Shown here piece by piece: positions 2,642 to 41,799 of a stretch of 64,000 nt of DNA; the first letter of the stretch is position 1, and every line of letters begins with the position of its first letter. A program made the position numbers and the translations under genes. The stretch comes from Dehalococcoidia bacterium. Its GTDB lineage: Bacteria > Chloroflexota > Dehalococcoidia > Lucifugimonadales > UBA3495. Location: assembly GCA_965232815.1 (NCBI GenBank), contig OZ247427.1, positions 2,201,602 to 2,265,601 on the forward strand. The letters run 5' to 3'. The notes below the pieces were generated by a model, which worked only from the letters and a program-made list of their open reading frames with translations, did not search any database and was not told where the DNA came from.

Positions 2642-2657
2642 GGCCGGAGTGAGTGCG

Positions 2658-6796: not shown

Positions 6797-6916
6797 AGGC
6801 GCAAGGGTTCCGGTCTCCGGGACGCGCCGACGGGCAGCAAAGGCCGGGGCCGGCGGGTGCGAATCTGCTGGCCCCGAACATTTGAGACAACACACTAGCA
6901 GCAAGCAGGTAAAACT

Positions 6917-8778: not shown

Positions 8779-8843
8779 TGATGTTATTTGTAAGACGTTT
8801 GCGTAACTGTGTTTGTCGCCGCCCATTGCAGGGATAGTCGATT

Positions 8844-9683: not shown

Positions 9684-9808
9684 CCGCGATCCACCTGGCG
9701 CTCCCCCGGTGCGGGAAGCGACTGCGCCGAGCACCGTGCGCTCCGTTTCCTTGACCATTCTGCTAATATGGCGGAAATCCACCATGTTTCGAAACGGGGG
9801 CAGCGATT

Positions 9809-11931: not shown

Positions 11932-11940
11932 TGCTATACT
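11932..11940 (+). promoter_or_regulatory. extended -10 promoter candidate (TGcTATACT) for tRNA-Ser
   Basis: TGCTATACT ends 26 nt upstream of the tRNA 5' end. No good -35 element. Confidence 0.35.
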
Positions 11941-11966
11941 GTATGCGGCCGTCGATCGGCCGACGC

Positions 11967-12054
11967 GGAGGGATGGCAGAGTGGACGAATGCACCGGTCT
12001 TGAAAACCGGCAGGGTTAATACCCTCGTGGGTTCGAATCCCACTCCCTCCGCCA
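11967..12054 (+). tRNA. tRNA-Ser (anticodon UGA), CCA encoded
   Basis: Acceptor stem GGAGGGA/TCCCTCC, anticodon stem CCGGT/ACCGG with loop CTTGAAA, a long variable arm (GGGTTAATACCC), T-arm GTGGGTTCGAATCCCAC, discriminator G and CCA. Confidence 0.95.
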
Positions 12055-12063
12055 CAGCGCTCC

Positions 12064-13503
12064 CTACACCCGATTGCCCCAATCAATGTATTGCGCCGCG
12101 CCGACGTGGCTGATTTGAACGCGTTGGCGGTAGTTGCCCGACTGTGCTTCGTGCGTCGTAACCCATGCCTGTGCTGAGGACTTCGGGTTGTCCGCCAATG
12201 CTTCGTCAAGCACCCTCCCGTCCATCGCTGGTACAACGTCGTCAACTCCCAGCAGTTTCAGGATGGTGGGCGCAAAATCGATATTGCCGGATGGGGTTTC
12301 CACCACGGTGCCGGCGCGGAGGGATGGCCCTTTGGCCAGTCCAACGTTTTGCATTTCGTGCCGGCTCATGCTCCCGTGTTGTCCCTGGCCCGCCCTTCCA
12401 CCTGTTGAGTAAGCGTGCCCTTCGTATCCAACCCCGTTGGGTACGCTGGTCCAAAGGAATGACATGGTCAAATCAGGAGACCTCGGGCCGTCGCATCCGA
12501 TCAGCGATGCCGGCAGGGTGCCACTGGGTTGGCCGACCCTCTCCGATGCGAACAGAGATCCGCACCATTCGTGATTGGTGAGCCATTGAGCCACTGATTC
12601 CGCAGTGTCGTGATCGTTCTCGTGTACGTAAAACAGGGCCGATCCCCCGTTGCCGGCAACCGCCACGCCGCCGGGCTGGTCCACCGTTGGAAAACCTGAC
12701 TCCCGCATCATGCTCTCGATTGGAATGGCCTCGGTGATTGTCGAATACCCGTGGTCGGATGCGATAAGGATATCTGTGCATTCGGATCGCCCGTTGCGCA
12801 TGAGCCAACTGAGTATCTCGCCGAATTCCGCGTCGGCCTCCCGCAACGCCTGTGGCGCCCTGCCCGATCCCACGCCGTCCTCGTGCTGGGTCTTGTCCGG
12901 CTCGGACAACCACAGCAGCGCGACGGCAGGGTCGATCTTCGGCAGCACGTACTCGGTCAGGATCCGTCGGCCATGCGTCAACCGGGCTGTGTTGGGCAGG
13001 ACCTCAGCGGGCCACTCGCCGAAGCGCTCTGCCAGTTCCGCATACAACGGCCTGGGCAGCGTAAATTGCGGATGAATGGTGGCGCCGCCCGAAGTCGCTG
13101 CGTTCGGGTTGTGCACATATGCGTTCCCGCTGGTGCCGGTCCCAATCGCGACGTACTCCATGCCGTGAGCATGGAGCCGATCTGCCAAGGTTGGAGCTAA
13201 CAGTGCGCGGCCCGTGGCATCGACAACGGCCTGCAGGGTCGGTTCCATCGCCGGAATTACCTGGTGTGGATCGTAATCTCGGCACAGGTAAGTGTTTCCG
13301 GCCAGCCCGTGCTGACCGGGCCGGCAGCCTGTAACCAGACTCGATGCGTTGACCCTGGTTACGGTCGGGAATACCGGATGGTGATTGGCGAATGTCACAC
13401 CGGTCCGGGCAAATTCAGCCAGGTTGGGCATCAATTCTTCGGTAATTTGCGCCGGCTGCAGGCCGTCAAACACCACCACGAGAACGCTATTTTTTTCGGG
13501 CAT
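12064..13503 (-). CDS. alkaline-phosphatase superfamily protein (nucleotide pyrophosphatase/phosphodiesterase type)
   Basis: The N-terminus VLVVVFDGLQP and IASDHGYS are typical of type I phosphodiesterase/NPP enzymes. Confidence 0.8.
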   Translation of the reverse strand: MPEKNSVLVVVFDGLQPAQITEELMPNLAEFARTGVTFANHHPVFPTVTRVNASSLVTGCRPGQHGLAGNTYLCRDYDPHQVIPAMEPTLQAVVDATGRALLAPTLADRLHAHGMEYVAIGTGTSGNAYVHNPNAATSGGATIHPQFTLPRPLYAELAERFGEWPAEVLPNTARLTHGRRILTEYVLPKIDPAVALLWLSEPDKTQHEDGVGSGRAPQALREADAEFGEILSWLMRNGRSECTDILIASDHGYSTITEAIPIESMMRESGFPTVDQPGGVAVAGNGGSALFYVHENDHDTAESVAQWLTNHEWCGSLFASERVGQPSGTLPASLIGCDGPRSPDLTMSFLWTSVPNGVGYEGHAYSTGGRAGQGQHGSMSRHEMQNVGLAKGPSLRAGTVVETPSGNIDFAPTILKLLGVDDVVPAMDGRVLDEALADNPKSSAQAWVTTHEAQSGNYRQRVQISHVGAAQYIDWGNRV

Positions 13504-13517
13504 GCTGTATCCCTCGC

Positions 13518-14462
13518 CTACTCCCAGTCCAACAGTTCCTTGATCGCTGCCCAGGCGGCATCGCTGTCAACTCTGCCGGGGGCCGCCACCTGGATCGGCC
13601 CCTGATTGGCATCAACCACCTCGCACTTTCCCCACATCGCAGAGTCATCAGTGTCGTCCGAGTCAACCGCCCTCACGGTTATGCCGTTTAACCCAACCAC
13701 CTGGGGGTGTGTCACCGCAAGCACGGCCAACGGGTCATATAGATAAAACTGCTGGCGGGACGAATCCCTCGCAAACCAGCCCTCCAGCAGTTCAGCCGCC
13801 AGCGTCCCCATTTTGCTGCCGCTGCACACCGTCTCCGCTTGAGCCCGTGAGATCGCTACCCGCTGGCAGGCTGCCAGATCTATCAACGTTATCGGGAGCC
13901 CGGAATCGAAAATTATCTTGGCCGCAGTGGGGTCGCTGTAGAAATTGAACTCCGCGTGGGGACTCGCATTGCCGCGAGCGTTCACTGCGCCGCCCATGAC
14001 CACGATCCTGCCCGCCGCCCGCAGGGCGTCCGGGTTGCTCCTCCACAGCCTCGCCAAGTTGGTCAGGGGTCCCAACGCAATCAGCGTCACCTCGCCCGGG
14101 TGCGCGCTCAGTGTTGCCGTCAGAAAGGGAATCGCTTTGGTGTTGGACGCGCCGATGTCGGGTTCTTTCATCCGCCGCGTCAAACCGGATGCCGAATGAA
14201 CTTGTCGGGCGTAGGCATATCTCCCACGTATGGGCCGCGCGGCTCCACGGTACACCGGTATGTCCGAGCGTCCGATATGTTCCAGCAGCGCCAGCGAATT
14301 GCGGGTCGAGCGAGCCAGGGGGACATTGCCTGCCGTCGTCGTGAATCCCAGAACGTCAAAACTTGGGTCGGACAGGAGCATCAGGATGGCGACGGCGTCA
14401 TCAACCCCGGGATCGGTATCGACGACTACTGGGACCGGCTTATTGTTGTGCCGAGCGTTCAT
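13518..14462 (-). CDS. nucleoside hydrolase (IUNH family)
   Basis: VVVDTDPGVDDAVAILMLL (the DxDxxxDD signature). Confidence 0.85.
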   Translation of the reverse strand: MNARHNNKPVPVVVDTDPGVDDAVAILMLLSDPSFDVLGFTTTAGNVPLARSTRNSLALLEHIGRSDIPVYRGAARPIRGRYAYARQVHSASGLTRRMKEPDIGASNTKAIPFLTATLSAHPGEVTLIALGPLTNLARLWRSNPDALRAAGRIVVMGGAVNARGNASPHAEFNFYSDPTAAKIIFDSGLPITLIDLAACQRVAISRAQAETVCSGSKMGTLAAELLEGWFARDSSRQQFYLYDPLAVLAVTHPQVVGLNGITVRAVDSDDTDDSAMWGKCEVVDANQGPIQVAAPGRVDSDAAWAAIKELLDWE

Positions 14463-27880: not shown

Positions 27881-27972
27881 CTCACGGTTGCCTGTCGTCA
27901 GGTCTCACGGTTGCCTGTCGTCAGGTCTCACGGTTGCCTGTCGTCAGGTCTCACGGTTGCCTGTCGCCAGGT
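27881..27972. repeat. tandem repeat, 23 bp x 4 (CTCACGGTTGCCTGTCGTCAGGT)
   Basis: Copies at 27881, 27904, 27927 and 27950. The last copy has one T>C change. There are no spacers. Confidence 0.95.
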
Positions 27973-27979
27973 CTTTCAG

Positions 27980-28259
27980 ATACCGACTTTCGCCGGTATG
28001 ACGGTTTGGGTTCTTGACGGTTTCCTCAAGTCTGAACAGTCACGCGCGACCGGCCGGCAAATGTCCTGCGCTCCACCGGCGTTCGACAGACACCGTTGCT
28101 CGACAGACAGCTTGCTCGCCGAACCGCGTCCCAGTCGCCGAACCACATCCTGACTTAATGAAATGGCCTCGGTGCGGGTAGGGGAGGACGATCTGCGGTA
28201 ACAGTTTAGAGTTGGCGGCAGCCGCGTCATGTAGGCGTCATTCCCGCGGAAGCGGGAAT
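27980..28259. repeat. further family-2 hairpins (ATACCGACTTTCGCCGGTAT at 27980-27999; ATTCCCGCGGAAGCGGGAAT at 28240-28259)
   Basis: Short perfect stems with GTCAT / CCAGAA-type flanks in both orientations. Together with 27838 they form a REP/BIME-like cluster. Confidence 0.7.
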
Positions 28260-28439: not shown

Positions 28440-28970
28440 ACCTCCCGGAACAGGCCAATATCGCTGCGGATCCCATCATGCCTGAACAGATACACAAAAT
28501 AATCTGGAAGGAGAAATATGATGCTGGATGAACTCCTGAACGCAGCGGGTGCGTTACCTGACCGCGAGTGGGGCCACCGGTTCGGCTGCCCGCCTGCCGG
28601 TTCGGCTGCCCGCCTGAAGGCTGCCACCTCAAAGACAAGACTGGCGTCACCCGGTACTGCAAAGACCAGCGCTACGAGAAGCCCCAAGGCAAGTTGTTGC
28701 GGATAGTGGGCCTGCTGCCCCGCTGCTCAGACGAGTGGAAAACCGAGTACAAAAAGCGGACGACGGACGATGGAGCGGCACTTCAGCAGCGTGAAGCATA
28801 GTCGGCTGATGAACCAGCGCCGCAACTTCAACATCATTCAAAGGTTTTCTACTCATGCCATCAGCGTAACCGACGTCCCATCCTCACCCCAGGAACCATC
28901 CCCGCACGTTTGGCCCGTTGTCACACACCCTCTAAGCCAGCTACTGTGGCAAAATGCCGTCCATGAGTAA
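28440..28970 (+). pseudogene. C-terminal remnant of a DDE transposase, multiply frameshifted
   Basis: Pieces in three frames: ...GHRFGCPP(E)GCHLKDKTGVTRYCKDQRYEKPQGKLLRIVGLLPRCSDEWKTEYKKRTT, then (M)ERHFSSVKHSRLMNQRRNFNII. This resembles the conserved C-terminus (YxKRxxxERxFSxxK) of IS4/IS5-superfamily transposases. No N-terminal half is present. Confidence 0.5.
28577..28616. repeat. perfect 20-bp tandem duplication (CCGGTTCGGCTGCCCGCCTG x2)
   Basis: Copies at 28577-28596 and 28597-28616. Removing one copy fuses ORFs 28518.. and 28568.. into one frame. Confidence 0.95.
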
Positions 28971-31900
28971 GCCGAGCTTCAAGCAAATCACCGAGGACTA
29001 CTTCACGACGCTGCAGCAAGTCGGACGCTCTGGCGGCGCGACCGGTGAGCGTTCTCTGTATGGCCCCCTCGCCAACCTGCTGAACGCAGTAGGAAGCACG
29101 CTGAGACCAAAGGTCTTCTGCGTCCAGGAACTCGCCGACCAGGGCGCAGGTCATCCCGACTTTGGCCTGTACACGACGCGGCAGGTGCAAAAGGGCACTC
29201 CGAAATCGGGGCAAAAGCCGGAACGCGGGGTGATAGAAGTCAAATCAGTCGAGGACGACGCACGGCTAACTGCCCAGAGTGACCAGGTCGCCGGCTACTG
29301 GCTGGGTTACCGGCAGGTGCTGGTGACCAACGCGCGCGACTTCGTGCTGGTGGGCGAGGACGCCGCCGGCAACCCGGTCCGCCTGGAATCCCTGCGGCTG
29401 GCGGATTCGGCGGCGCAGTTCGACGCGAAGCTGGAACATCCGATGGCCTTCGCCAACGAGGTCGGCCCCGGGCTGGGCGAGTACCTGACCCGCGTGCTGT
29501 CCCACGCCGCGTCGCTGTCCGAGCCGAAGGACGTGGCGTGGCTGCTGGCGTCCTACGCCCGCGACGGGTTGGCAAGGGTTGAACATGCCGGCGATGCCAC
29601 GTCGCTGGCCACATTGCGGCAGGCGCTTGAAGATTCGCTGGGGGTGCAGTTCGACGGCGATCAGGGCGCGGCTGTCTTCCGGTCCACACTGGTGCAGACC
29701 CTCTTCTACGGCGTCTTCTCCGCCTGGGTGCTGTGGGCGCGGCAGACACCCAAACCGGACGGCCTCTTCAACTGGCACGACGCGGTCTGGCATCTGCGGG
29801 CGCCGGTGCTGCGCGCGTTGTTCCAGCAGCTATCCGACCCCGGGAAGTTGCAGCCGCTGGGACTGGTGGAGGTGCTGGACTGGACCGCCGCCGCGCTCAA
29901 CCGGGTGGAACGGGACGCCTTCTTTGCGAAGTTCAGCGAGGGCGAGGCCGTGCCCTACTTCTACGAACCCTTCCTGCAGGCATTCGACCCCGACCTGCGC
30001 AAGCAGCTTGGCGTCTGGTACACGCCCGCCGAGGTGGTGCGCTACATGGTGGCGCGAGTGGACAAGGCGCTGAAAGACGACCTTGGCATCCCCGACGGGC
30101 TGGCCGGCGAGAACGTGTACGTGCTTGATCCCTGCTGCGGCACCGGCGCGTACCTGGCCGAGGTTCTCCGCCGCATCGCCGCCAACCTGCGGGACAAGGG
30201 ACTCGGCGCGCTCACCGGCGCGCAGGTCAAACAGGCGGCCACCCAGCGCGTCTTCGGCTTCGAGATCATGCCGGCCCCCTTCGTGGTGGCGCACCTGCAG
30301 GTCGGCCTCGCCATGCAGGAATTGGACGCCCCGCTGTCCGACGACGGCGACGAACGGGCCGGCGTCTTCCTCACCAACGCGCTGACGGGCTGGGAGCCCA
30401 CGGTGCAGAAGCCCCTGCCCTTTCCCGAACTGGAGCAGGAACGAGAGCGCGCCGAACGGGTCAAGCAGGACACGCCGGTGCTGGTCATCCTGGGCAACCC
30501 GCCCTACAACGGCTTTGCCGGCATGGCCGTAGACGAGGAACGCGAACTGTCCCAGGCCTACCGCACCACCAGGCAGGTACGGCGTCCCGAAGGCCAGGGG
30601 CTGAATGACCTCTACGTGCGCTTCTTCCGCATGGCCGAGCGACGCATCGCGGAGAAGACCGGCCAGGGCGTGGTGTGCTTCATCTCCAACTACTCTTGGC
30701 TGGACGGTCTCTCCTTCACCGGCATGCGCGAACGCTACCTGGAGGCCTTCGACGCCATCCGCATCGACAATCTGCACGGCGACCGCATCATTTCAGAGTA
30801 CGCGCCTGACGGGCACACCAGCGAAACGGTCTTCGCATTGCAGGGGCAATCTCCCGGCATCAAGGTCGGCACGAGCATCACGCTGCTATCCAAGTCATCG
30901 GCGGCCGAATCAAAGGACAAACGCATCCTGTACCGTGACTTCCATCAGGCGCGGGCGGACGAAAGGCGTATGGCTTTGCTGCGAAGTCTTGAGGCCCCCG
31001 ACATTGATTCAGGCTATTCGCCAATGAACTGCAACCTTTCCCTGGGTTTGCCGTTCAAACCCATGGCGGTCAGCGACGGTTGGCAGGACTGGCCATCGCT
31101 GCCGGATTTGTTCCCGACGTCATTCCCGGGCGTGAAAACCAGCCGCGACGGTTTCTTGGTCGACGTTGACCTCGACCACCTGCAGCATCGAGTCGCTGAC
31201 TACTTCAACGCCGACCTGGGCCACGAAGAGATCACGCGCCGCTATCCCGGCGTGATGAAGCCCACCGCACGGTTCAACGCCCGCACCGTCCGCGACCAGT
31301 TGGTTAAGTGCGGCGGGCCGGCCGAGGACGGTTTCGTCCGCTATGCCTACCGTCCGTTCGACAACCGCTGGCTCTACTGGGACGCCGATGGCACGCTGCT
31401 GGATCGCCCCCGCGCCGATTACAAGCCGCACGTTTTCGAGGGGAACTTGTGGCTGGTGGCCCAGCATAAACCGCGTAGGGAATGGGGATCAGCGCAAGTC
31501 ATCACCCATATGGGTTGCATTGACCTGATGGACCGCAGCGCCACCTGCACCCCAATGTGGCTTTTGGACGACGGCCTCGACATCGACGGTACTGACTCGC
31601 AACACCGCCCCAACCTGTCGCTCGCCGCGCAACACTATCTGGGACGCCTGGGGTTGGGCGCTGAGGACCTGTTCCACCACGTCATCGCCACGCTGCACGA
31701 TCCCGAGTACCGCACCACCAACGCCGGCGCCCTGCGCATGGAGTGGCCACGCATCCCGCTGCCCGGCTGGCCCGACGGCGACGCTCACGGCGCGGCTGAT
31801 GCACTGGCGGAATCGGCGGCGCGAGGCCGGCAGTTGGCCGCCCTGCTGGACTCCGATACCCCCGTCGCCGGCGTGACCACCGGCGCGCTGCGTCCCGAAC

Positions 31901-32316
31901 TCGCCGCCATCGCCGTGCCCACGACGACGGACGGCGGCAACATGGCGGGCGAGGACTTCGTGGTGTCCGCCGGCTGGGGACACTTCGGCACGGGCGATGC
32001 CGTCATGCCTGGCCAGGGCAGAATCGTGGAACGCGACTACACGGACAAGGAACGAGCCGAGCTGACCGACGCCATCCCGACGCTGCACGACACCACCTAC
32101 GACGTGTATCTGAACGACCGTGCCTACTGGCGCAACGTCCCCGCCGCCGTCTGGAACTACCAGCTCGGGGGCTACCAGGTTCTCAAGAAGTGGCTGTCCT
32201 ACCGCGAGAGCAAGGTGCTGAGCCGCCCTTTGTTGCCGGAAGAAGTTCAACACTTTACGGACACGGCGCGACGGATCGCTGCGATCCTAAAGGTGACGAA
32301 ACAGCTTCAGAACTGA
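28954..32316 (+). CDS. single-chain restriction-modification-like enzyme: N-terminal PD-ExK nuclease-like domain + gamma-class N6-adenine DNA methyltransferase + Type-ISP-like C-terminal specificity domain
   Basis: HPD(69)F...GVIE(95)VK(97)S, WYTPAEVVRYMV, motif I VLDPCCGTGAYL, motif IV ILGNPPYNGF, and the C-terminal YRPFDNRWLYWD and VWNYQLGGYQVLKKWLSYRE. No helicase domain. Confidence 0.8.
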   Translation: MPSMSKPSFKQITEDYFTTLQQVGRSGGATGERSLYGPLANLLNAVGSTLRPKVFCVQELADQGAGHPDFGLYTTRQVQKGTPKSGQKPERGVIEVKSVEDDARLTAQSDQVAGYWLGYRQVLVTNARDFVLVGEDAAGNPVRLESLRLADSAAQFDAKLEHPMAFANEVGPGLGEYLTRVLSHAASLSEPKDVAWLLASYARDGLARVEHAGDATSLATLRQALEDSLGVQFDGDQGAAVFRSTLVQTLFYGVFSAWVLWARQTPKPDGLFNWHDAVWHLRAPVLRALFQQLSDPGKLQPLGLVEVLDWTAAALNRVERDAFFAKFSEGEAVPYFYEPFLQAFDPDLRKQLGVWYTPAEVVRYMVARVDKALKDDLGIPDGLAGENVYVLDPCCGTGAYLAEVLRRIAANLRDKGLGALTGAQVKQAATQRVFGFEIMPAPFVVAHLQVGLAMQELDAPLSDDGDERAGVFLTNALTGWEPTVQKPLPFPELEQERERAERVKQDTPVLVILGNPPYNGFAGMAVDEERELSQAYRTTRQVRRPEGQGLNDLYVRFFRMAERRIAEKTGQGVVCFISNYSWLDGLSFTGMRERYLEAFDAIRIDNLHGDRIISEYAPDGHTSETVFALQGQSPGIKVGTSITLLSKSSAAESKDKRILYRDFHQARADERRMALLRSLEAPDIDSGYSPMNCNLSLGLPFKPMAVSDGWQDWPSLPDLFPTSFPGVKTSRDGFLVDVDLDHLQHRVADYFNADLGHEEITRRYPGVMKPTARFNARTVRDQLVKCGGPAEDGFVRYAYRPFDNRWLYWDADGTLLDRPRADYKPHVFEGNLWLVAQHKPRREWGSAQVITHMGCIDLMDRSATCTPMWLLDDGLDIDGTDSQHRPNLSLAAQHYLGRLGLGAEDLFHHVIATLHDPEYRTTNAGALRMEWPRIPLPGWPDGDAHGAADALAESAARGRQLAALLDSDTPVAGVTTGALRPELAAIAVPTTTDGGNMAGEDFVVSAGWGHFGTGDAVMPGQGRIVERDYTDKERAELTDAIPTLHDTTYDVYLNDRAYWRNVPAAVWNYQLGGYQVLKKWLSYRESKVLSRPLLPEEVQHFTDTARRIAAILKVTKQLQN

Positions 32317-32329
32317 GGACGGCTCAAGA

Positions 32330-33003
32330 ATGATCTACGATGTACAGAGACTGGTGAAGAACTGTCTCACGGCGTTGCCCGTGGCCTGTGAAGGCGTTTC
32401 AATCGAGGCTTTGGAAAACCGCATACCGACAGACCTCCTCGGAGGGCGTCAGCCTACTTTTCGTTTAGAGGGTGTTCTCCGGCCGGCTGGTTGGTACCAG
32501 CGCCACCATGGACTACTGGGTGGTGGATTGGAGCTTCAGGCCAGAAGGTGCTACTGCACCGCGGAAGCCAGACAGGGGAAGCCAGACAGGCTTGTCAGGA
32601 TCGCAAGAGCATCCCTGCATCGAGTGCGTTGCCGGAAATCACCACAGACTACGAAACCAACCTGCAGGCGGCCTTCTGGAATTGGGTATGCAATCGGCAG
32701 GCGGGCGACAACCCACGAGGCGACTTCATTCGGGACACCAGGGATCTGCTGAGGGTAGGCAGAGATTCACCGGACGAAGTGCTCGAGAGCGCCTGCGCAA
32801 AGGCAATCGAAAAGTACCTCACCCTCCGCACCCGCTGGGCGGCTGAGGTTGGTGTCCATCCCTGGGACTGTACCCCGCTTGACGGCAAAGCGAAGATCAA
32901 GGGATCTGGATGGTACTACTGCTGCTCGCAGTGCGACAACTGCGACTGCGACGGCGTGAGCGGGTGCAATTGTGGCTGCAATAACTGCTCAACTGAAGAA
33001 TGA
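32330..33003 (+). pseudogene. Cys-rich-tailed small protein gene split by a 14-bp tandem duplication
   Basis: The ATG is 13 nt after the RM stop. The frame changes at the duplication, and the downstream frame runs to the stop at 33001-33003 and ends GSGWYYCCSQCDNCDCDGVSGCNCGCNNCSTEE. Removing one repeat copy gives one 219-aa ORF. Alternatively, only the distal part is a real gene. Confidence 0.45.
32563..32590. repeat. perfect 14-bp tandem duplication (GGAAGCCAGACAGG x2)
   Basis: Copies at 32563-32576 and 32577-32590, read directly from the sequence. Confidence 0.95.
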
Positions 33004-33057
33004 ATCAACCCACCTTGAAGAGAACGACGCGGACCACTCGGATACGCGCGAGGCTTC

Positions 33058-33809
33058 ATGCAATATCACCTGGACCTGTTTACTCCTGAGACATGGCAGG
33101 CCTTCACAGAAGCTGGAGCAGCATGCACAGGCGCGGAGCCCGACTACGACGCGTAGCCCGACTACGACGCGTAGCCAACGAACGAGTCAAACCGGGAGAC
33201 ATCCTCCTCTGCTACATGACGCGCGTATCCCGCTGGTGCGGTGTGCTGGAAGTCGAATCCGGACCTTTCGAAGACGATACTCCGAAGTTTGGCGCCACTG
33301 ACCCGTACCCAATCCGGTTCAACGTCAAACCAGTCGTCATCTTGAACACGGAGTCGGCGGTACCCATACGAGACCCACAGGTCTGGCCGGCTTTAACCAT
33401 CACCAACCGGCTCGAGCCTGGCAACCCTTACTGGACAGGATTCTTCAGGCAATCCCTGAATACCTTCGACGACGACGACGGGAGTTTCCTGGTGGATCTT
33501 CTCAAAAGACAGCAGTCAGGCCCGGAAGCGTACCCGCTCACCGACCAAGACCGGCGTCGGCTCAACCGGAGGCAGAGAGTCCGTACACTGACAGGAGAGG
33601 TTGATGTCAGCATCCCAGACGCTGAGGATGAAGAACTCTCACCTGAATCGAGAAACGCAGAATCGGACCAACGGACCAACTACCAGGAATCCATCCAATA
33701 CCAAGCGAAAGTAGCCCAAATCGGCGTCGAAATGGGATTCCATGTCTGGGTGCCGAGAAGCGACAAAGTGCGGGTCATGGAACTCCTCCAGCCGGCAGCA
33801 CATGAATAG
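33058..33809 (+). pseudogene. PUA/EVE-like domain protein with the beginning of a restriction-endonuclease-like domain; frameshifted and 3'-truncated
   Basis: MQYHLDLFTPETWQAFTEAGAACTG (frame of 33058, stop at 33154-33156) continues logically as ...RLRRVANERVKPGDILLCYMTRVSRWCGVLEV in the frame of ORF 33093. The ORF ends at ...IQYQAKVAQIGVEMGFHVWVPRSDK, before any D...ExK core. Confidence 0.5.
33137..33172. repeat. perfect 18-bp tandem duplication (AGCCCGACTACGACGCGT x2)
   Basis: Copies at 33137-33154 and 33155-33172. It encodes ARLRRV twice in the 33093 frame. Confidence 0.95.
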
Positions 33810-33831
33810 AGCCTACGGTGGCAATCTCGTT

Positions 33832-33888
33832 GGCCCGGCATCAACGCTCGTTGCGAAAAACCCGTTGTCGTCCACCCCCCGAAAAACC
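33832..33888 (+). repeat. left copy of a 57-nt imperfect direct repeat bounding the XRE-ImmA/TIR cassette
   Basis: GGCCCGGCATCAACGCTCGTTGCGAAAAACCCGTTGTCGTCCACCCCCCGAAAAACC aligned by hand against 38088-38144 gives 52 of 57 identical positions. Confidence 0.8.
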
Positions 33889-34404
33889 GGCTTTGCCTAA
33901 AAAGTCTGCGCGACGGGTCAGTTTTCGGACAAGTTTGAGACTTTTTGGGCAGAGGCAATCTTCGTGAACTCGACTGTGAGACCGAGACTGTAGATCGACC
34001 GTATCAGAACATACAAATTGTTCGCGAGAAGTTTGCAGAGCACCGCGTTGGCCTGACTTGACGGACGAGCCGGGAAACAGGGCAGGGATGTGTTGGTGAT
34101 GCCTGAGGTGGCGGAGGACCAAAAACGGTAAAGCCCCACCCCTGACATTGTTACCCTGCGTCGGGGAGACCTGCTCAACCGCGGGTCTCCCCGATTTGCT
34201 GTGAGAGCCACCGAGGTTCTCAAAATCGCGGATTCGTCGGGTTTCAGGAACCGTCTCACGTTGGGAGCGAGAATCGCTCAGTGCCATCTGCCCACGGAAG
34301 GGACTGGTTGGTCACACCCATACGGCCTATGGGCCCCGGTCGGTCTTCTCAATGGCAGATGGCGTACTCCATTGTATTGCGATCGTCCACAATCGTTTTG
34401 CCTG

Positions 34405-34433
34405 TTGACGAAGAGGTCGCCCCGGCATAGAAT
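34405..34433 (+). promoter_or_regulatory. sigma70-type promoter (TTGACG - 17 nt - TAGAAT)
   Basis: -35 at 34405-34410 and -10 at 34428-34433, 68 nt upstream of the ATG at 34501. Confidence 0.55.
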
Positions 34434-34460
34434 TGGGCATAATATTGTTGCTCTTGGTAA

Positions 34461-34480
34461 AGCCTTGAACTCTCAAGGCT
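34461..34480 (+). promoter_or_regulatory. perfect 8-4-8 palindrome AGCCTTGAactcTCAAGGCT between promoter and RBS (candidate operator)
   Basis: Read directly from the sequence. It lies in the 5' UTR of the operon that encodes an XRE-type HTH protein. Confidence 0.45.
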
Positions 34481-34500
34481 GACGCATAACGGAGTGGTTT

Positions 34501-35082
34501 ATGGTACCAGCCCGAATTGAAATCGAGATGGACGACGCCTGCGCGATTTTGGACCCGTTCCTGCCGCGGTGCGTGGACATCCTATTGGACTTTATGGATA
34601 AGGTTAACTCCCCACAAATGGCCTCCCTGCGCGGTTCCATGGGACGCCGCACGTTCTGCTCGTTGCTGGCCGATGATTTTTATTCCCAAATGGAGCAGGC
34701 ACCAGAGCACGGAGTCCGTTTCGAGCGTCGTCAAGACAAAGGCCAGCATTTCATTGTGTTTCAGGATCTTCTGGCCCTTCGAGTCAAACAGATTGGCAGG
34801 CAATATCTTTCATGGAATCTGCCGACCACCCATTCGCTGCGGTGGAACCTCGGGTTGCCGTCTCCAGAGATCGGCCCGCTTCCTACGCTGGAATTGGGGT
34901 ACCATCTGGACGCCCTGATGAATGGCTACCGCGGCATCCACCTCTTGCAGCGGTTCGAGAAAGTCGTGGATTGGCGTCAGCAGATTTACGGTGTCCAAAC
35001 CGATGCCTTCGACACCGAGCAACCGCGACTGCATGGCTTGGGCGGCAGCCGTAAGGTATACCGGTATAGACCGATCCGCTAA
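34501..35082 (+). CDS. hypothetical protein (193 aa), first gene of the cassette operon
   Basis: GGAG RBS about 9 nt upstream, and the stop is 11 nt before the next ATG. No motif recognised. Confidence 0.6.
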   Translation: MVPARIEIEMDDACAILDPFLPRCVDILLDFMDKVNSPQMASLRGSMGRRTFCSLLADDFYSQMEQAPEHGVRFERRQDKGQHFIVFQDLLALRVKQIGRQYLSWNLPTTHSLRWNLGLPSPEIGPLPTLELGYHLDALMNGYRGIHLLQRFEKVVDWRQQIYGVQTDAFDTEQPRLHGLGGSRKVYRYRPIR

Positions 35083-35093
35083 CACTGGATGCG

Positions 35094-36455
35094 ATGATGA
35101 CTTCGAAAAGCGTCAACCCTCAACTGATCCAATTGGCTCGACAATCGCGTGGCCTGACCCAAACCGCGCTCGCTGCAGGTATTGCGGTGGGCCAGTCCAT
35201 GATCGCCAGGTACGAATCTGGCGTGAAGGATGTGCCGCTCGACCACCTCAACAGGTTGTCCGAGGTTCTGGATTATCCGGTTCGTTTTTTCACTCGCCCG
35301 ATGGGCCGGGCCGGGTCTGGAAGTGAGATATTCCACCGCAAGCGAGCCCGGGTCCCCGCCAATGTCCTGGGGCGCAACTACGCAGACGCCACGATCCGGC
35401 GGATGGAGATCGACGCCCTGAGAGAATCTCTGGATGGGGTGTTCCCCTTCCCACCTTTTCCTTTCTATCCAATCGAGGAATTCGAGTACGACGCCGAGAA
35501 AATCGCCCGAACAGTCCGCGCTGCGTGGCGACTGCCGGACGGTCCGGTCTTCAACGTCACCAGGACGGTTGAGGAAAATGGCGGCATCGTTGTGGCTCAC
35601 AAGTTCGACTCACGTATCGACGGCTTCGGCTGCCGCACGCTGGGGCTTCCACCGGTCTTTCACCTCAACCGCGACCTCCCGCCAGACCGTTGGCGTTGGA
35701 CGCTGGCCCACGAGATCGGCCACATGGTGATGCACGTCGAAGCGGGCCAGCCCCATAATGAGGCGGAAGACCAAGCGCACCGGTTCGCGGCAGAGTTTCT
35801 TTGCCCTGCATACCAGATAGAGCCGCAATTACGGGGGCTGAACATGGGAAAGTTGGCCCCATTGAAAATGCAGTGGAAAGTATCCATGGCAGCGTTGGTC
35901 AAAAGAGCCAACGACGTGGGAACCATCGACGCCAAGCAGTACAAATCGCTGATGGTGCGGTTATCCCAACAAGGGTACCGAACCCGGGAGCCCTCCAATC
36001 TGGACCCACCAGAAGAACGCCCTACCTTACTGTTCGATCTGGCTCAGTATTTTGAGCAAAGCATGGAGTTCTCTCGCTCTGAAGTGCTGGCGCTGCTCAA
36101 CATCGGCGAGACCGATTTCTGGACCTACTACCGGGACCCGGACGACATTTTCGGCGACATTATGGGGCAACCGTCCCAAGGACAAGGAGACAACGACGTG
36201 TCCGAACAGGTAGCGCATTTGCGCCTGCACGCAGGAGCCCCACCGGTTCACCGCCAACTGGGATGCGCTCCTGAGGATGTGGGACGAGACCAAAAGTTGC
36301 TGGACGCTCTCCATCTTTTGCAGATGGAGAACATATTACCGGAGCGGTTGGTGGAAGCCAGCGAGGAACGGGTACGCTCCAGAATTGAGACCACCCATAA
36401 TAGGCAACGTTTCACCGACGACCTGGATAGGCTCTACGGTTCCGATTATCAGTGA
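35094..36455 (+). CDS. fused XRE-family HTH / ImmA-IrrE (M78, COG2856) zinc metallopeptidase with about 100-aa C-terminal extension
   Basis: The HTH QLIQLARQSRGLTQTALAAGIAVGQSMIARYESG, followed by the HExxH site LAHEIGHMVMH and EDQAHRFAAEFLCP. Confidence 0.85.
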   Translation: MMTSKSVNPQLIQLARQSRGLTQTALAAGIAVGQSMIARYESGVKDVPLDHLNRLSEVLDYPVRFFTRPMGRAGSGSEIFHRKRARVPANVLGRNYADATIRRMEIDALRESLDGVFPFPPFPFYPIEEFEYDAEKIARTVRAAWRLPDGPVFNVTRTVEENGGIVVAHKFDSRIDGFGCRTLGLPPVFHLNRDLPPDRWRWTLAHEIGHMVMHVEAGQPHNEAEDQAHRFAAEFLCPAYQIEPQLRGLNMGKLAPLKMQWKVSMAALVKRANDVGTIDAKQYKSLMVRLSQQGYRTREPSNLDPPEERPTLLFDLAQYFEQSMEFSRSEVLALLNIGETDFWTYYRDPDDIFGDIMGQPSQGQGDNDVSEQVAHLRLHAGAPPVHRQLGCAPEDVGRDQKLLDALHLLQMENILPERLVEASEERVRSRIETTHNRQRFTDDLDRLYGSDYQ

Positions 36456-36720
36456 TAAGGCAGACGTCACCCCGCCGTCATAATCGGTCCCAAATCGGTG
36501 GAGGCGGGCCTTCAACCGACTGGGACCAAGCCTTGGTTACAGCGAGAACGGAAACCATGTTGAGTGATTGAAGGCGGAACTATCTGCCCGCACTGCATAC
36601 GCAATTTTCAATTGCCATCCTCGCCGAGGACCCTCTTGGAGTTATGGATGAGTCGCCACCGTGAGGCGCGGGATCCGTCGGTGACCGACCGTAGGGCTGC
36701 TGTTTCATGAGAGAGGTGTT

Positions 36721-37638
36721 ATGTACAACCTTTTGGTGGTGAACTACGACGACGCCCCCAACTACTGGGAGAACAATGCCACGCGATGGGTACGGGCATT
36801 GCCACAGGGATGGGGACTCAATCGCATGCCGGGACGAGAGCGATGGGACGAGCTACGGAAACGTCCCTGTCTCTTTACATACGAACTCAAACCGCCCGCG
36901 GTTGTAGGGCATATCGGCGAAATCGTAGATGTGGACTTTCCAGATATCAAGTACGAATTGGAAGACAGTATTGAAATCAGTCGCGACTGTCTCCGCGACC
37001 TTGGCTTCAAAACCGGTGATGAACATAGAACGCAATGGATCGAGAAAGAGGATGTTGACCTGTACAAAGTCGTAACCAAATGGCGACGGGAGGAATGTAA
37101 CGTCCGCCCCTTGCCCACAGAAGCAGAAAAGAGGCGGGTATGGGGGAACGATTACCTGTGGAAGCCTCGGTTGTTTTTGAGCCACCGTGCAGCATATCGC
37201 AGCAAAGTTTCGCAAGTGAAAGTGCTGCTGGAGCATGCAGGAGGCGCCTGCTTCGTCGCTCACGATGACATTGAGCCCGGCTCCATCTGGCATGACGAGA
37301 TCATCCACGCCTTGGATACCATGCAGGTATTCATCGGATTCATAACCGACGATTTCCATACAGGAGGTTGGCCCGACCAAGAAGTCGGGTATGCACACCA
37401 GAGGGGAATCCCGAAAGTCTTCCTGAAGTTAGGACAATGCGATCCTAGAGGCGCGGTGGCTATTGAACAGGCATTGTCTGCGAACTGGAATAACGCAGTT
37501 GCTAAACTGATCCTACATTTGCGCGAGAGCGGACTCATGCCCAAACAAGGGCCAGCATGGCCTTTGCCGAAAGACGAGGATCGCCTGCCGTGGGAACCCT
37601 ATATTGACGAGCACGGGTCCTTCCACCCTCCTGCATAG
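36721..37638 (+). CDS. TIR-like domain protein with unknown about 150-aa N-terminal domain
   Basis: The C-terminal half RLFLSHRAAYRSKVSQVKVLLEHAGGACFVAHDDIEPGSIWHDEIIHALDTMQVFIGFITDDFHTGGWPDQEVGYA follows the bacterial TIR pattern (FLSH...K..., W..eI..al, S.W..qE.g.a). RBS GAGAGAGG. Confidence 0.65.
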   Translation: MYNLLVVNYDDAPNYWENNATRWVRALPQGWGLNRMPGRERWDELRKRPCLFTYELKPPAVVGHIGEIVDVDFPDIKYELEDSIEISRDCLRDLGFKTGDEHRTQWIEKEDVDLYKVVTKWRREECNVRPLPTEAEKRRVWGNDYLWKPRLFLSHRAAYRSKVSQVKVLLEHAGGACFVAHDDIEPGSIWHDEIIHALDTMQVFIGFITDDFHTGGWPDQEVGYAHQRGIPKVFLKLGQCDPRGAVAIEQALSANWNNAVAKLILHLRESGLMPKQGPAWPLPKDEDRLPWEPYIDEHGSFHPPA

Positions 37639-37899
37639 AACGACGACTACTGCCTGATGGTTACGCCTAGACCAACATCCGAAGTGCGGCGTGCGGATGG
37701 CCGGCGACCAACCTGCGGCGATCTAATCGGCCCGCTCGCAACTCGACGGCCGATGATGTTGTGGGTCATCGTCACCCTGTCCCCAAATCGGGTGAACTGT
37801 CCGAAAATTGCTATTACGGGACAAAGCCTGTGAGCGCACGATTTCTGATATGAAAGACCTGCGGTACTTTTTGGGCAGAACGAGACTTTATAGGCAAGG

Positions 37900-38296
37900 C
37901 CTGAAAAACCCCCTTCGAGGCCCTCAAAACGCCGGTTGAGGCCCCGAAAAACGCCGGTTGAGATCGCCCAAATCCGCGATTTCGTCGTCTGTCCCGGCGC
38001 TGGACATCGCGCTCATCCGGGCGACTGGCGGCAGGTGGTCCGATCCTCTTCACTCCAATCCTCCTCATCTTTGACCGGGTACCGGTGGGCCCGGCGTCAA
38101 CGCTCGTTGCCCAAAATCCGTCGTCGTCCACCCCCCGAAAAACCCCCGTCGAGGCCCTGAAAACGCCGGTCGAGACCCTGAAAAACGCCGGTTGAGATCG
38201 CCCAAGTCCGCGATTATTGTCGTCTGTCCCGGCGCTGGACATCGCGCTCACCCGGGCGAGTTGCGGCCGCTGGTCCGGTTTTCCTCATCTCCAATG
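37900..38296. repeat. two tandem copies (period about 234 bp) of a unit that opens with three 21-22-nt iteron-like subrepeats (CCCYSAAAA(A)CGCCGGTYGAGR)
   Basis: Subrepeats at 37900-37920, 37921-37941, 37942-37963 and at 38133-38154, 38155-38175, 38176-38197. Each set is followed by the conserved TCGCCCAARTCCGCGATT...GTCTGTCCCGGCGCTGGACATCGCGCTCA. Confidence 0.85.
38088..38144 (+). repeat. right copy of the 57-nt direct repeat
   Basis: GGCCCGGCGTCAACGCTCGTTGCCCAAAATCCGTCGTCGTCCACCCCCCGAAAAACC; see 33832-33888. Confidence 0.8.
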
Positions 38297-38791: not shown

Positions 38792-39280
38792 TTGCTAACG
38801 ATGATTATCCTTACGGACGAACCGCTGGACCCGGCGGCGGTCACCGACTCGGTGCGACGGGACGGCAACGGAGCGGTGGTCACATTTCTGGGGACAACCC
38901 GGGACAATTTCGGGGGGAAGACCGTCACGCGGCTGGAATACGAAGCGTATGACGCGATGGCGATCAAGAAAATGCACGAGGTGAGGGACAGCCTGCGCGC
39001 GGACTATGGCATCGAGGATATCGCCATCGCGCACCGGACGGGCCGGGTGGACGTTGGGCACATCAGCCTGGTGGTGGCCGTGGCGTCGCCGCACCGGGTG
39101 AAGGCGTTTGAGGCGTGCCATGAGGCGGTCAACCGCATCAAGACGATCGTGCCGATATGGAAGAAGGAGTGGTTCGCCGACGGTTCACGCTGGGTGGCTT
39201 GCGAGGACCACGAATTCGCCGACGAGGCGGAGCACCGACATGCCCACGCCGAACGGCACGCGGTGACTACCGGAGACTGA
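38792..39280 (+). CDS. moaE: molybdopterin synthase catalytic subunit
   Basis: GAVVTFLGTTRD, IAIAHRTGRVDVG, VVAVASPHR and PIWKKE motifs. Confidence 0.85.
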   Translation: MLTMIILTDEPLDPAAVTDSVRRDGNGAVVTFLGTTRDNFGGKTVTRLEYEAYDAMAIKKMHEVRDSLRADYGIEDIAIAHRTGRVDVGHISLVVAVASPHRVKAFEACHEAVNRIKTIVPIWKKEWFADGSRWVACEDHEFADEAEHRHAHAERHAVTTGD

Positions 39281-39334
39281 CCGCGGCCAAATATGTGGAA
39301 CCGTGCCCTTGAATCCGCCGGTTCGAGGGCTTTT

Positions 39335-39973
39335 TTATCGCAGGCCGTCGAGCAGGTGGACGAGGATCGTGCCTGATTCGAGGTCGATGCGCTGGATGAC
39401 CTGGGAGATCGCGGGCAACAGGATCTCGGGGCCGGATTCGCTTTTGACCACGTAGACGTCGTTGCTCCCGGTGACGAGGATTTCGCGGACGGCGCCGAGG
39501 TCCTCTCCCTTGTCGGTCAGGACGGACAGGCCGATCAACTGGTAGTGATAGTATTCGCCGGGCAGCAGATCGTCGGTGGGTCCGACGGGGGCAAAAATCC
39601 ATTCGCCGGCCAGTGATTGGGCTGCGGATGGGTTCAAATCACGCAAACCCAAGAGCGCCTGGCCGTTGGGCATGGCCTGGTGGGAATCGATAACCCTGGA
39701 TGCGTCGCCGACGGTGATCGATTCACCAACGGTGAACCGGTTCGGGTTGTCGGACAGGGATTGGATCCTCAGGATCCCATCGAGGCCGTGGGGACGCAGC
39801 ACCCTGCCGACGAGGACACAGCCTGCGGGGGCCTCGGGCTCCGGTGAGGCCGAGGGCGGATTCCCAGGAGGCTTGTTGCCCCGGGAAGCCGGCCGGCGTC
39901 CGCGACGTCGGGGCTGACGGGGGCTAGACAATCTCCAAGACGGCGCGGGTTCCGTCCTTGACCGCGGCGACAC
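39335..39973 (-). CDS. rimM: 16S rRNA processing protein RimM (with Pro/Arg-rich N-terminal extension)
   Basis: GRVLRPHGLDGILRIQSLSDNPNRF and the PRC-barrel part GEYYHYQLIGLSV...SNDVYVV. The GTG start overlaps the KH gene by 50 nt, and no in-frame alternative start was found downstream. Confidence 0.8.
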   Translation of the reverse strand: MSPRSRTEPAPSWRLSSPRQPRRRGRRPASRGNKPPGNPPSASPEPEAPAGCVLVGRVLRPHGLDGILRIQSLSDNPNRFTVGESITVGDASRVIDSHQAMPNGQALLGLRDLNPSAAQSLAGEWIFAPVGPTDDLLPGEYYHYQLIGLSVLTDKGEDLGAVREILVTGSNDVYVVKSESGPEILLPAISQVIQRIDLESGTILVHLLDGLR

Positions 39974-40151
39974 GGAGGAGGACGCGCATTGCCTGAGCGA
40001 CCCTGCCCTGGCGGCCGATCACTTTGCCCTTGTCTTCAGGGGCTACTTCCAGGCGGATCACGATCTGGTCGCCTTCGTCGGATTCTGTGACACGCACCGC
40101 TTCGGGGTTAGAGGTCAGAGACTGGGCTATAAACTCAATCAGTTCTTTCAT
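39924..40151 (-). CDS. KH-domain RNA-binding protein (YlqC/UPF0109)
   Basis: EDKGKVIGRQGRVAQAMRVLL (GxxG KH loop), located between rpsP and rimM as usual. Confidence 0.85.
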   Translation of the reverse strand: MKELIEFIAQSLTSNPEAVRVTESDEGDQIVIRLEVAPEDKGKVIGRQGRVAQAMRVLLRVAAVKDGTRAVLEIV

Positions 40152-40404
40152 CGGCGTGTACCTTGTCGAAAATGCCGTTGAAATCGAAGATGCGACGCAC
40201 CGGGTCGGAGGGTTGAGCGCCTTTGCGCAGCCAATCGACTGCCCGATCTTCGTCGAGGGTTACCGCCGGGGGGTCTGCCATTGGGTCGTAGTGGCCAATG
40301 CCGTCGATATAGGCGCCGTCGCGGGGGTTGCGCTGGTCGGTGACGACGATTCGATAGTAGGGGCGGCCTTTCTTTCCTATTCTCCGCAGGCGAATCCGTA
40401 GCAT
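40135..40404 (-). CDS. rpsP: 30S ribosomal protein S16
   Basis: MLRIRLRRIGKKGRPYYRIVVTDQRNPRDG. Confidence 0.95.
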   Translation of the reverse strand: MLRIRLRRIGKKGRPYYRIVVTDQRNPRDGAYIDGIGHYDPMADPPAVTLDEDRAVDWLRKGAQPSDPVRRIFDFNGIFDKVHADERTD

Positions 40405-40815
40405 TTGAACTCCGTGGCTGAAATTACGAATGGGGTATCTTTCAATGTATGATTAGCCGACGGATTTGTCAAACAGCCTGAGCATGTTGAGCAAGTTCGC
40501 ACGGGTATCGGTTCGGGGCGGCCAATCGTGGGGATCTACGGCGGCCGTTAAAAGGGTATCGGGCCCAGACTGGACCTTTGGCTTGCCGCCCGATGCTCCC
40601 AAAAACCTTGGGGCGACGGTAGACACTGGTCTGGGCCCGACTGACGGGCTAATTGCCGTTTTAGAAAAGCGATGACGCTAAGAGGCGCTCACCCCGTCGT
40701 GTCCAGACTGGTGCCTACCATCGCCCCAGCATGTTAAACTTACTTCCATTCGCATCACCTCCTTTCTAAATTTTCCGCACAGCGGTTAGTGGGAATTTAC
40801 TACCAGGTCGAATAG

Positions 40816-41799
40816 TTGTCAAGCCGTTTGGAAAGAGATTTTCGGGATCAATCGCGAGGCGAAAAATCGCTTCGCGCGGTGTTCATGGGCACGCCGAGTT
40901 TCGCGGTGCCGGTGCTGGACGCTTTGTACGAATGCCGGGAGGTTGAGGTGGCAGCGGTGTACACGCCGCCGGACCGCAAACGGGGGAGAGGGCAGACACT
41001 GGAGGCGTGCCCGGTAAAGGCTCGCGGAGAGGAACTGGGAATTCCGGTCGTCCAGCCGGGCACGTTCCGCAATGCTGAGGCGGTGTCCGAGCTGGAATCG
41101 TACCGGCCGGACGTGATCGTGGTTGCGGCGTACGGACGACTGCTGCCCGCCGATGTGCTTGCGATACCGCGGTTGGGGTGCCTGAACCTGCATCCGTCGC
41201 TGCTGCCCAAGCACCGCGGGCCGGCGCCGGTGGCCGGGGCGATCCTGGCTGGCGACGCCGTGACGGGCGTGTCGCTAATGCTGCTGGACGAAGGGATGGA
41301 CACGGGTCCCATTGTCGCTCAATGGGAACGGCGGATTGATGAAATAGACGACGCGGCGACGCTCACGGAGACGCTGTTCGCTGATGGAGCGGCGCTGTTG
41401 ATTGAAACGCTGCCGGGGTGGGCCGAAGGGTCGGTGTCGGCGGAGGCGCAGGACGACGTGCGAGCGACCTACACCAGCAAACTGGAACGGGCCGACGGGT
41501 TGGCGGACTGGGGGTTGAGCGCGGAGGTTCTGGCCAGACGGCAGCGGGCTTACACGCCGTGGCCGGGACTGTATACGACCTGGGAAGGGAGTGAGCTGAA
41601 GCTGCTGGAGGTTGCCGCGGTTTCGGGTGTGAACGCGGAGCCGGGCCGAGTTAGCAGCACGTCTGATTATGAGGTTGCGGTAGGAACCGGGGATGGACTG
41701 CTGGCGGTCAGGCGGTTGCAGTTGGCAGGACGCCGGTCCAGCAGCGGTGAGGATTTTTTGCGGGGATACCCCGAATTTCCGGGATCGATGCTGGTGTGA
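40816..41799 (+). CDS. fmt: methionyl-tRNA formyltransferase
   Basis: VFMGTPSFAVPVLDAL, NLHPSLLPKHRGPAP. The TTG start from the ORF track is uncertain, and GTG 40879 is an alternative. Confidence 0.9.
   Translation: MSSRLERDFRDQSRGEKSLRAVFMGTPSFAVPVLDALYECREVEVAAVYTPPDRKRGRGQTLEACPVKARGEELGIPVVQPGTFRNAEAVSELESYRPDVIVVAAYGRLLPADVLAIPRLGCLNLHPSLLPKHRGPAPVAGAILAGDAVTGVSLMLLDEGMDTGPIVAQWERRIDEIDDAATLTETLFADGAALLIETLPGWAEGSVSAEAQDDVRATYTSKLERADGLADWGLSAEVLARRQRAYTPWPGLYTTWEGSELKLLEVAAVSGVNAEPGRVSSTSDYEVAVGTGDGLLAVRRLQLAGRRSSSGEDFLRGYPEFPGSMLV

Follow-up and report, generated by a model that had tools for sequence, protein, structure and literature searches.

A two-domain TIR protein with an uncharacterised N-terminal domain, a candidate single-gene immune effector in a Dehalococcoidia bacterium

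A gene for a two-domain TIR protein lies in a 64,000-nucleotide stretch of the genome of a Dehalococcoidia bacterium (assembly GCA_965232815.1, contig OZ247427.1, positions 2,201,602 to 2,265,601; this whole stretch is called here the window). On balance, it probably encodes a self-contained immune effector of abortive infection, a single polypeptide in which a sensor is joined to a TIR domain hydrolysing nicotinamide adenine dinucleotide (NAD+), that is, an NADase. The presumed sensor would be the N-terminal domain of some 145 residues, which belongs to no described family and would be connected by a conserved linker helix to a catalytically competent TIR domain. This N-terminal domain (hereafter N-domain) would be acted on by a cue, either from infection or from a mobile element, after which the TIR domains would self-associate and NAD+ would be hydrolysed through the glutamate of a WxxxE motif (E221), leaving the infected cell arrested or killed. 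The gene would be independent cargo of a defence island of about 10 kb, beside a Type IIG restriction-modification (R-M) enzyme and a separate pair made of the open reading frame (ORF) ORF193 and an RmrA-like protein. An earlier reading, which used only the letters of the window and its ORFs (the sequence-only reading), had proposed a stand-alone sensor-TIR effector of abortive infection, possibly under XRE-ImmA control. The first part of this proposal stands, with a TIR fold, a glutamate at the catalytic position, an uncharacterised N-domain and no conserved partner, an absence that fits a stand-alone sensor-TIR protein; the control by XRE-ImmA does not.

Bacterial immunity makes repeated use of single-chain sensor-TIR effectors, and every further sensor domain points to another way of detecting infection. 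The present family comprises about 2000 clusters at 90% identity, with a fixed architecture and an N-domain that lies outside curated families. As a one-gene system, it would be a tractable place to look for a new trigger.

The TIR domain and its active site

The C-terminal half of the protein is a true TIR domain, because a Pfam match above cutoff, a confident AlphaFold model and the best structural matches all identify it as such. TIR_2 (PF13676) matches residues 152-238 with E=1.5e-8 and 35.6 bits, where the gathering cutoff is 28, and the same family is precomputed for nearly all homologues. Built from a 101-sequence alignment, the full-length model has a mean predicted local distance difference test score (pLDDT) of 87.8, and it displays a flavodoxin-like fold in which strands and helices alternate and the five strands run parallel, as in solved TIR structures. 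When this model was compared with the PDB using Foldseek, 17 matches were found at E<=1e-3, sixteen of them TIR domains (SARM1, TLR15, MAL, Hydra TRR-2, C. elegans TIR-1, TLR2 and BcThsB, 8fz9) and one a nucleoside 2-deoxyribosyltransferase; the TIR domains of BtpA, SPARTA and SpbK came next, just above that threshold. For isolated TIR-domain chains, the template modelling (TM) score normalised to the target is 0.6-0.74. Similarity to the PADLOC and NCBIfam models of ThsB, SAVED-TIR, ThcB4 and retron-TIR proteins is weak and stays below threshold. The C-terminal tail has a pLDDT of 59-75 in its last blocks and is missing from most of the homologues, which have about 291 residues.

Residues that mark a catalytic TIR domain, the WxxxE glutamate at the start of helix αC and the Ser/His pair at the end of strand βA, are conserved throughout the family. 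Invariant positions in 101 homologues are F152, S154, F178, A180, W190, L198, W217, E221, G223, P242 and Q250, while H155 is at least 90% conserved in the same set. Against PDB sequences, the best matches of the family profile are all TIR proteins, with the CARF-TIR NADase Cat1 (9mud) at E=4e-5, and in this alignment S154, H155, W217 and E221 fall on S7, H8, W70 and E74 of Cat1. The NADase site of Cat1 is lined by S7, H8, N9, N10, D33, S68 and E74, and the E74A substitution abolishes function (PMC12162218). NADase activity is predicted for the present protein from this conservation. Two claims of the sequence-only reading are borne out here: the bacterial TIR layout at about residues 155-260, preceded by the motif R150-LFLSH-155, is confirmed by structural matches in which TIR domains dominate and no non-TIR flavodoxin-like family takes their place, and the glutamate placed at the catalytic position (W..QE) is the invariant E221 of W217-PDQ-E221.

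A large family with a fixed architecture

A search with the whole protein recovered 111 homologue clusters (38-67% identity, mostly of about 291 residues), and a profile of the N-domain recovered 1974 protein clusters; the 120 N-domain matches listed are proteins of about 290 residues combining the N-domain with TIR_2, or shorter fragments. Judged by these numbers of homologous sequences, the observation is far beyond chance. The tryptophan of the linker, W141, does not vary in 37 sequences, and conservation at this position is at least 90% in the set of 101. In the genomes of GTDB, full-length members belong mainly to Dehalococcoidia, Caldilineaceae and other Chloroflexota metagenome-assembled genomes (MAGs), and further ones are found in MAGs of Bdellovibrionales, Gammaproteobacteria and Vicinamibacterales; at L002, L021 and other loci, such members stand at 38-48% identity across Chloroflexota, Bdellovibrionales, Gammaproteobacteria and Acidobacteriota. 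At least two members come from documented sponge symbionts, SB0661_bin_34 (Ircinia ramosa) and the APA_bin series (Aplysina aerophoba), which, together with the cross-phylum distribution, suggests horizontal spread within sponge microbiomes. Sequenced phages gave no match to the protein, and six sequenced plasmids matched its TIR half only. Several proteins of 150-226 residues consist of the N-domain only (P0126, P0129, P0136, P0128), and the gene of locus L020 is split, its TIR half being a 149-residue ORF and its N-domain a 209-residue protein (P0146) on the same contig; these forms may be frameshifts, pseudogenes, assembly errors or true stand-alone N-domain proteins.

The N-terminal domain

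Residues 1-148 have no significant match in Pfam, PADLOC, NCBIfam or PDB sequences, in keeping with the earlier remark that residues 1-150 resemble nothing recognised. A Pfam scan of the N-domains of 20 members and an hmmsearch against PDB sequences were equally negative, and phmmer against 1.84 billion representatives returned only proteins of about 300 residues consistent with the same family. Modelled alone with an alignment of the full-length homologues, residues 1-148 give a confident model (pLDDT 89.1, predicted TM score 0.77), whose beta-rich alpha/beta fold includes a helix (114-128) and a long hairpin formed by strands 60-72 and 75-87. W16, R35, F52, E55, G66 and L114 are invariant in 91 sequences; Y78, R103 and W106 are invariant as well. 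The aromatic and charged residues of this set (W16, R35, F52, E55, Y78, R103 and W106) would fit a ligand pocket.

The top 15 Foldseek matches of the N-domain model are all YTH domains, aligned over the whole domain, at E=0.017-0.06, with TM scores of 0.34-0.44 and Foldseek probabilities of 0.54-0.91; the highest TM score, 0.49 for YTHDC2, stands at rank 23, and no match lies at or below E=1e-3. Profile comparison by hhalign gave a probability of 0.17% against YTHDF2 and 0.08% against ORF238, an EVE-like ORF of the same island. The N-domain is uncharacterised, and its resemblance to YTH and PUA-like folds is tentative and marginal. It is possible, if doubtful, that the N-domain is a highly diverged YTH/PUA-like reader of a modified nucleobase or nucleotide, switching on the fused TIR NADase. 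Equally speculative would be the ligands that come to mind for such a reader, nucleic acid containing N6-methyladenosine (m6A) or methylome-derived nucleotides released in phage attack. Were it true, TIR-mediated NAD+ depletion would be linked to modified-nucleotide sensing, and we would face a large and so far unrecognised group of one-gene sensors of an 'epigenetic danger signal', perhaps common in communities of sponge symbionts and perhaps tied in function to the R-M systems that it often adjoins.

Neighbourhoods of family members

The surroundings of the gene elsewhere are varied, defensive or mobile, with no conserved partner. All-against-all clustering of the neighbours at 81 loci revealed no gene conserved with the full-length TIR form, and among 117 neighbouring ORFs of 22 members no Pfam family is present at more than four loci, the commonest being N6_Mtase, GmrSD_N, SMODS, Methylase_S, Patatin, transposases, PIN and AAA_21. 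Members of the family are found beside an integrase fragment and transposases (L001), AAA_21 and HNH (L088), NACHT proteins and transposases (L089, L091), AbiEi and an IS110 transposase (L092), type I R-M (L009, L013, L019), and, at L087, an operon of CBASS, the anti-phage system that signals by cyclic oligonucleotides, a proximity that is not conserved across the family. This CBASS-like operon (195-5939, minus strand) is divergent from the TIR gene (6001-6867) and codes for a ThiF/E1-like protein, a SMODS CD-NTase, a Cap17-like_N protein, a Peptidase_M78 and an unknown protein of 295 residues. The peptidase looks CapP-like, because its gene lies on the strand opposite to the TIR gene and within the CBASS operon; that it is the second M78 peptidase near the TIR family is probably coincidental.

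A related family of about 355 residues, from the same TIR clade, is typically placed between hsdS and hsdR inside type I R-M operons (L024, L025, L035, L042, L043, L044, L047, L052, L070, L072, L073, L075). At L025, for example, hsdM occupies 5971-7686, hsdS 8505-9716, the TIR gene 9713-10816 and hsdR 10835-13963. At least 16 of the 58 TIR-only loci have two or more type I genes (a lower bound, by tblastn), and the family spans many bacterial phyla as well as archaeal MAGs. Its similarity to the present TIR protein starts at the linker helix of the latter and covers about 145 residues, at 34-49% identity in TIR-only loci (typically 37-45%), with the RVWG linker and the FLSH and WxDQE motifs in common. 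It differs by its N-terminal region and by an extra C-terminal extension of about 100 residues. Homology between the two N-terminal regions was considered and rejected, as hhalign gives a probability of 11% and aligns only the RVWG linker. These proteins are annotated as 'TIR domain-containing protein' only, and the literature searched gave no directly relevant account of TIR genes inside type I R-M operons; by analogy, their placement recalls PrrC-type guards of R-M systems.

Alternative readings

Immediately upstream of the TIR gene, an RmrA-like protein combines an XRE helix-turn-helix (HTH) domain with an M78/ImmA peptidase, and the TIR protein might be the toxin or third component of an RmrA-controlled operon (34405-37700), repressed or neutralised by the HTH-protease until infection. 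This is improbable. To be sure, the two genes share a strand, 265 bp apart, with neither a terminator nor a sigma-70-like promoter predicted in the gap, RmrA-type antitoxins pair with very diverse toxins (PMC10440598), and locus L087 has an M78 gene too, but that gene belongs, as seen above, to a CBASS operon on the opposite strand. Homologues of RmrA, ORF193 and ORF238 were sought by tblastn within 10 kb of the TIR relatives and found at none of the 81 loci, nor did any of them appear in 8 further annotated places. The constant companion of the HTH-protease is ORF193, which has 11 homologue clusters and no family match in Pfam, PADLOC or NCBIfam: at five of the five other loci, its homologue is followed after 11-15 nucleotides (11 in the window) by an HTH and Peptidase_M78 protein, of about 453 residues at four loci and 303 at L086, and the gene downstream of this pair varies and is never a TIR gene. 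An operator common to both units was likewise ruled out: the gap before the TIR gene contains no palindrome and no copy of the one that precedes ORF193, and the 8-mers it shares with the ORF193 promoter region are at chance level.

The RmrA pair and the TIR gene are independent neighbouring units, because they co-occur at 0 of 81 loci, because ORF193 and RmrA are paired at 5 of 5, and because no operator is common to them. Coupling of the TIR protein to XRE-ImmA as a conserved feature was rejected both on the survey of TIR loci and on the reverse test from ORF193 homologues, and the TIR protein does not qualify as the RmrT toxin of a RosmerTA system, the co-conserved partner being ORF193. The local annotation is corrected accordingly, the XRE-M78 gene being assigned together with ORF193 to a RosmerTA-like pair of its own; the control that the sequence-only reading had envisaged is not supported. 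That reading had also called the arrangement undescribed, which was overstated, as a defence and toxin-antitoxin family pairing an XRE/ImmA-protease antitoxin with diverse toxins has already been published as RosmerTA (PMC10440598; 10.1101/2022.05.11.491447). ORF193 and the RmrA-like protein form a conserved, mobile two-gene RosmerTA-like module, in which ORF193 would be an undescribed RmrT-type toxin; going by its promoter-like and palindromic sequences, the segment 34405-34480 is likely the control region of this module.

We give similarly little credence to a generator of the Thoeris type, where the TIR domain would make a cyclic ADP-ribose (cADPR) isomer or a related signal activating an effector encoded elsewhere in the genome. 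Weak similarity to hidden Markov models (PADLOC ThsB at E=0.015-0.02, NCBIfam ThcB4 at E=3.2e-6) and the presence of BcThsB among the structural matches would agree with it, but neither model comes near its family cutoff (ThcB4 scores 26 bits where 220 are required), and no ThsA, SIR2, SLOG or Macro effector is present in the window or recurs near family members, so that membership in Thoeris was rejected. It also counts against such a generator that the genes of a defence signalling system are normally linked in an operon. A TIR effector of CBASS, Pycsar or type III CRISPR was discarded as well, the N-domain matching neither STING, SAVED nor CARF and no cyclase being found in the window. It had been noted from the letters that no ThsA, STING, NLR-like ATPase or cyclase lies nearby, and this holds: the six scanned ORFs of the island (28954-37638) match none of these families, and downstream the scan of three more ORFs (38792-41799) showed housekeeping genes.

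A factor of symbiosis or host interaction, interfering like TcpB/BtpA with sponge TIR signalling or NAD+ metabolism, is also unlikely. The sponge symbionts among the family members, the spread of the family over several phyla of the sponge habitat and the place of BtpA among the structural matches would speak for it; against it, the neighbourhoods consist above all of anti-phage and mobile-element genes, no secretion-system family recurs in the Pfam and PADLOC scans of neighbours, and the sister TIR clade lies within type I R-M operons across many phyla, archaeal MAGs included. Finally, it is very improbable that the protein is no NADase-type TIR at all, being some other flavodoxin-like enzyme (nucleotide-processing, similar to nucleoside 2-deoxyribosyltransferases) or a non-catalytic scaffold: the deoxyribosyltransferase 2a0k does match at E=3.8e-4 and such enzymes head the viral-library structural results for the full-length model, but the two folds belong to the same superfamily, so that cross-matches are expected, while Pfam TIR_2 is above cutoff, the best PDB sequence-profile matches are TIR proteins only, and the family shows little or no variation at the WxxxE and SH residues typical of TIR domains.

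Several points weigh against the view of the gene as a self-contained sensor-TIR effector with an anti-phage function. Every member of the family is known from sequence and predicted structure alone. For the N-domain, a sensor role is proposed on the grounds of where it lies and how well it is conserved, and the assignment of its fold is marginal. Among bacterial TIR proteins, some are signal generators that do not deplete NAD+, and some have eukaryotic hosts as their target; with at least two members in sponge symbionts, a role directed at the host is conceivable. The survey of neighbourhoods covers about 30 of them for some 2000 clusters, and its counts of defence neighbours are raw counts. 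In the source genome, RmrA and the TIR gene may be co-transcribed by local read-through, because the gap between them has no predicted terminator or promoter.

The island and its surroundings

The TIR gene is part of an island of about 10 kb (28.0-38.3 kb) of lower GC content, flanked by hopanoid-biosynthesis genes on one side and by moaE/rimM on the other (features are collected in Table 1). Two ORFs separate the Type IIG R-M gene from the RosmerTA-like pair: ORF170 (32491-33003), which ends in the Cys-rich stretch CCSQCDNCDCDGVSGCNCGCNNC, and ORF238 (33093-33809), whose EVE/PUA-like similarity is weak (Pfam EVE E=0.13, NCBIfam PRK00809 E=9.7e-5, both below cutoff). A direct repeat of 60 nucleotides (33829-33888 and 38085-38144, 90% identical) flanks the segment from ORF193 through RmrA to the TIR gene and occurs nowhere else in the window; its right-hand copy is inside a tandem duplication with a unit of about 234 bp (37900-38052, 38134-38287). 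The two copies could mark an insertion hotspot, be att-like remnants or be a repeat element; they have no match in Rfam, where a scan of the window yielded a tRNA-Ser only. At the left edge of the island, in the intergenic region 5' of the Type IIG R-M gene, four tandem copies of the 23-nucleotide unit CTCACGGTTGCCTGTCGTCAGGT and two copies of a 20-nucleotide unit are found at 27881-27995 and 28577-28616. Up to about 21 kb the GC skew stays near zero or slightly below it; it becomes mildly positive at 22-28 kb, falls back to about zero over the island (28-38 kb) and from about 39 kb remains positive (+0.1 to +0.3) until the window ends.

Table 1. The TIR gene, its protein domains and the neighbouring features of the window
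Feature	Position	Strand	Details and basis
Two-domain TIR protein, complete coding sequence with stop codon	36721-37638	+	305 residues, ATG start; ORF list, in agreement with the sequence-only reading
Shine-Dalgarno-like purine-rich GAGAGAGG	36709-36716	+	Ends 4 nucleotides 5' of the ATG of the TIR gene; read from the sequence
Core of the N-terminal domain, residues 1-~133	36721-37119	+	Separate structure model, Foldseek
Linker helix, residues 134-148, conserved RVWG motif (W141)	37120-37164	+	Alignments, hhalign
TIR domain, residues 149-270	37165-37530	+	Pfam TIR_2, Foldseek, family profile against PDB
S154-H155 of the FLSH motif, end of βA	37180-37185	+	Aligned with Cat1 S7-H8
W217-P-D-Q-E221, WxxxE motif, start of helix αC	37369-37383	+	Alignment with Cat1; E221 is the putative catalytic glutamate
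C-terminal tail, residues 271-305	37531-37635	+	Low-confidence model, poorly conserved
TIR-domain elements (residues): βA 150-154, αA 157-172, βB 176-179, αB 188-200, βC 203-208, αC 217-227, βD 232-236, βE 251-253, αE 259-269			Structure model
Type IIG/ISP restriction-modification enzyme, island neighbour	28954-32316	+	Type_ISP_C E=1.5e-43; PADLOC REase_MTase_IIG E=2.8e-96
Promoter-like TTGACG-17-TAGAAT, 5' of ORF193	34405-34433	+	Sequence reading
Perfect palindrome AGCCTTGA-N4-TCAAGGCT, 5' of ORF193	34461-34480	+	Sequence reading
ORF193, candidate RosmerTA-type toxin (RmrT-like)	34501-35082	+	Pairing with RmrA
RmrA-like XRE HTH and M78/ImmA peptidase antitoxin/regulator, 453 residues	35094-36455	+	PADLOC RmrA E=1.9e-57; Pfam HTH_3, Peptidase_M78

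Comparison with known systems

The closest relative in sequence and structure is Cat1, the CARF-TIR effector of type III CRISPR, likewise a single chain combining a sensor with a TIR NADase (PDB 9mud; PMC12162218). In Cat1, however, the TIR domain is N-terminal (the match covers its residues 3-92), whereas in the present protein the N-terminal position is held by the presumed sensor domain, which is unrelated to CARF; moreover, the CARF domain of Cat1 binds cyclic tetra-adenylate (cA4) from a linked CRISPR system, whereas the present gene has no linked system producing a signal. As a single-gene TIR protein of abortive infection, SpbK would be the closest functional analogue. Carried by ICEBs1 of B. 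subtilis (PDB 9phb), it is a stand-alone TIR NADase on a mobile element, without a dedicated partner gene, and responds directly to a phage protein (PMC12847820, PMC8880864). It is a structural match in Foldseek, with no detectable sequence relationship to the present protein outside the TIR fold. As for RosmerTA (RmrT/RmrA), it lies directly upstream in the same island, and the TIR gene co-occurs with RmrA nowhere else among the places examined.

A further parallel comes from a 2026 preprint describing a PUA-like sensor family that binds N6-methyl-deoxyadenosine monophosphate (m6-dAMP) and is fused to various effectors, as in PUA-Cal-HAD and in PUA-like-TIR, HEPN, HNH or McrB fusions (PMC12871103). 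The logic of these proteins, where a small domain of the nucleobase-binding type is combined with an effector that can be exchanged, TIR being one choice, and where R-M genes are often close by, matches that of the present protein, and the sole structural resemblance of the N-domain is to YTH, itself a PUA-like fold, below usual significance levels. Membership in this m6-dAMP-sensing family was rejected, since motif II (VWWGWWxKxxExxP) and motif V (TPxYY), which form its aromatic nucleobase pocket (PMC12871103), are absent from the consensus of the present family. Single-chain sensor-TIR effectors are a known theme, illustrated by Cat1, TIR-STING, TIR-SAVED, SpbK and the PUA-like-TIR fusions (PMC12871103). 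The present protein follows this familiar design, and what it brings that is new is an undescribed sensor domain.

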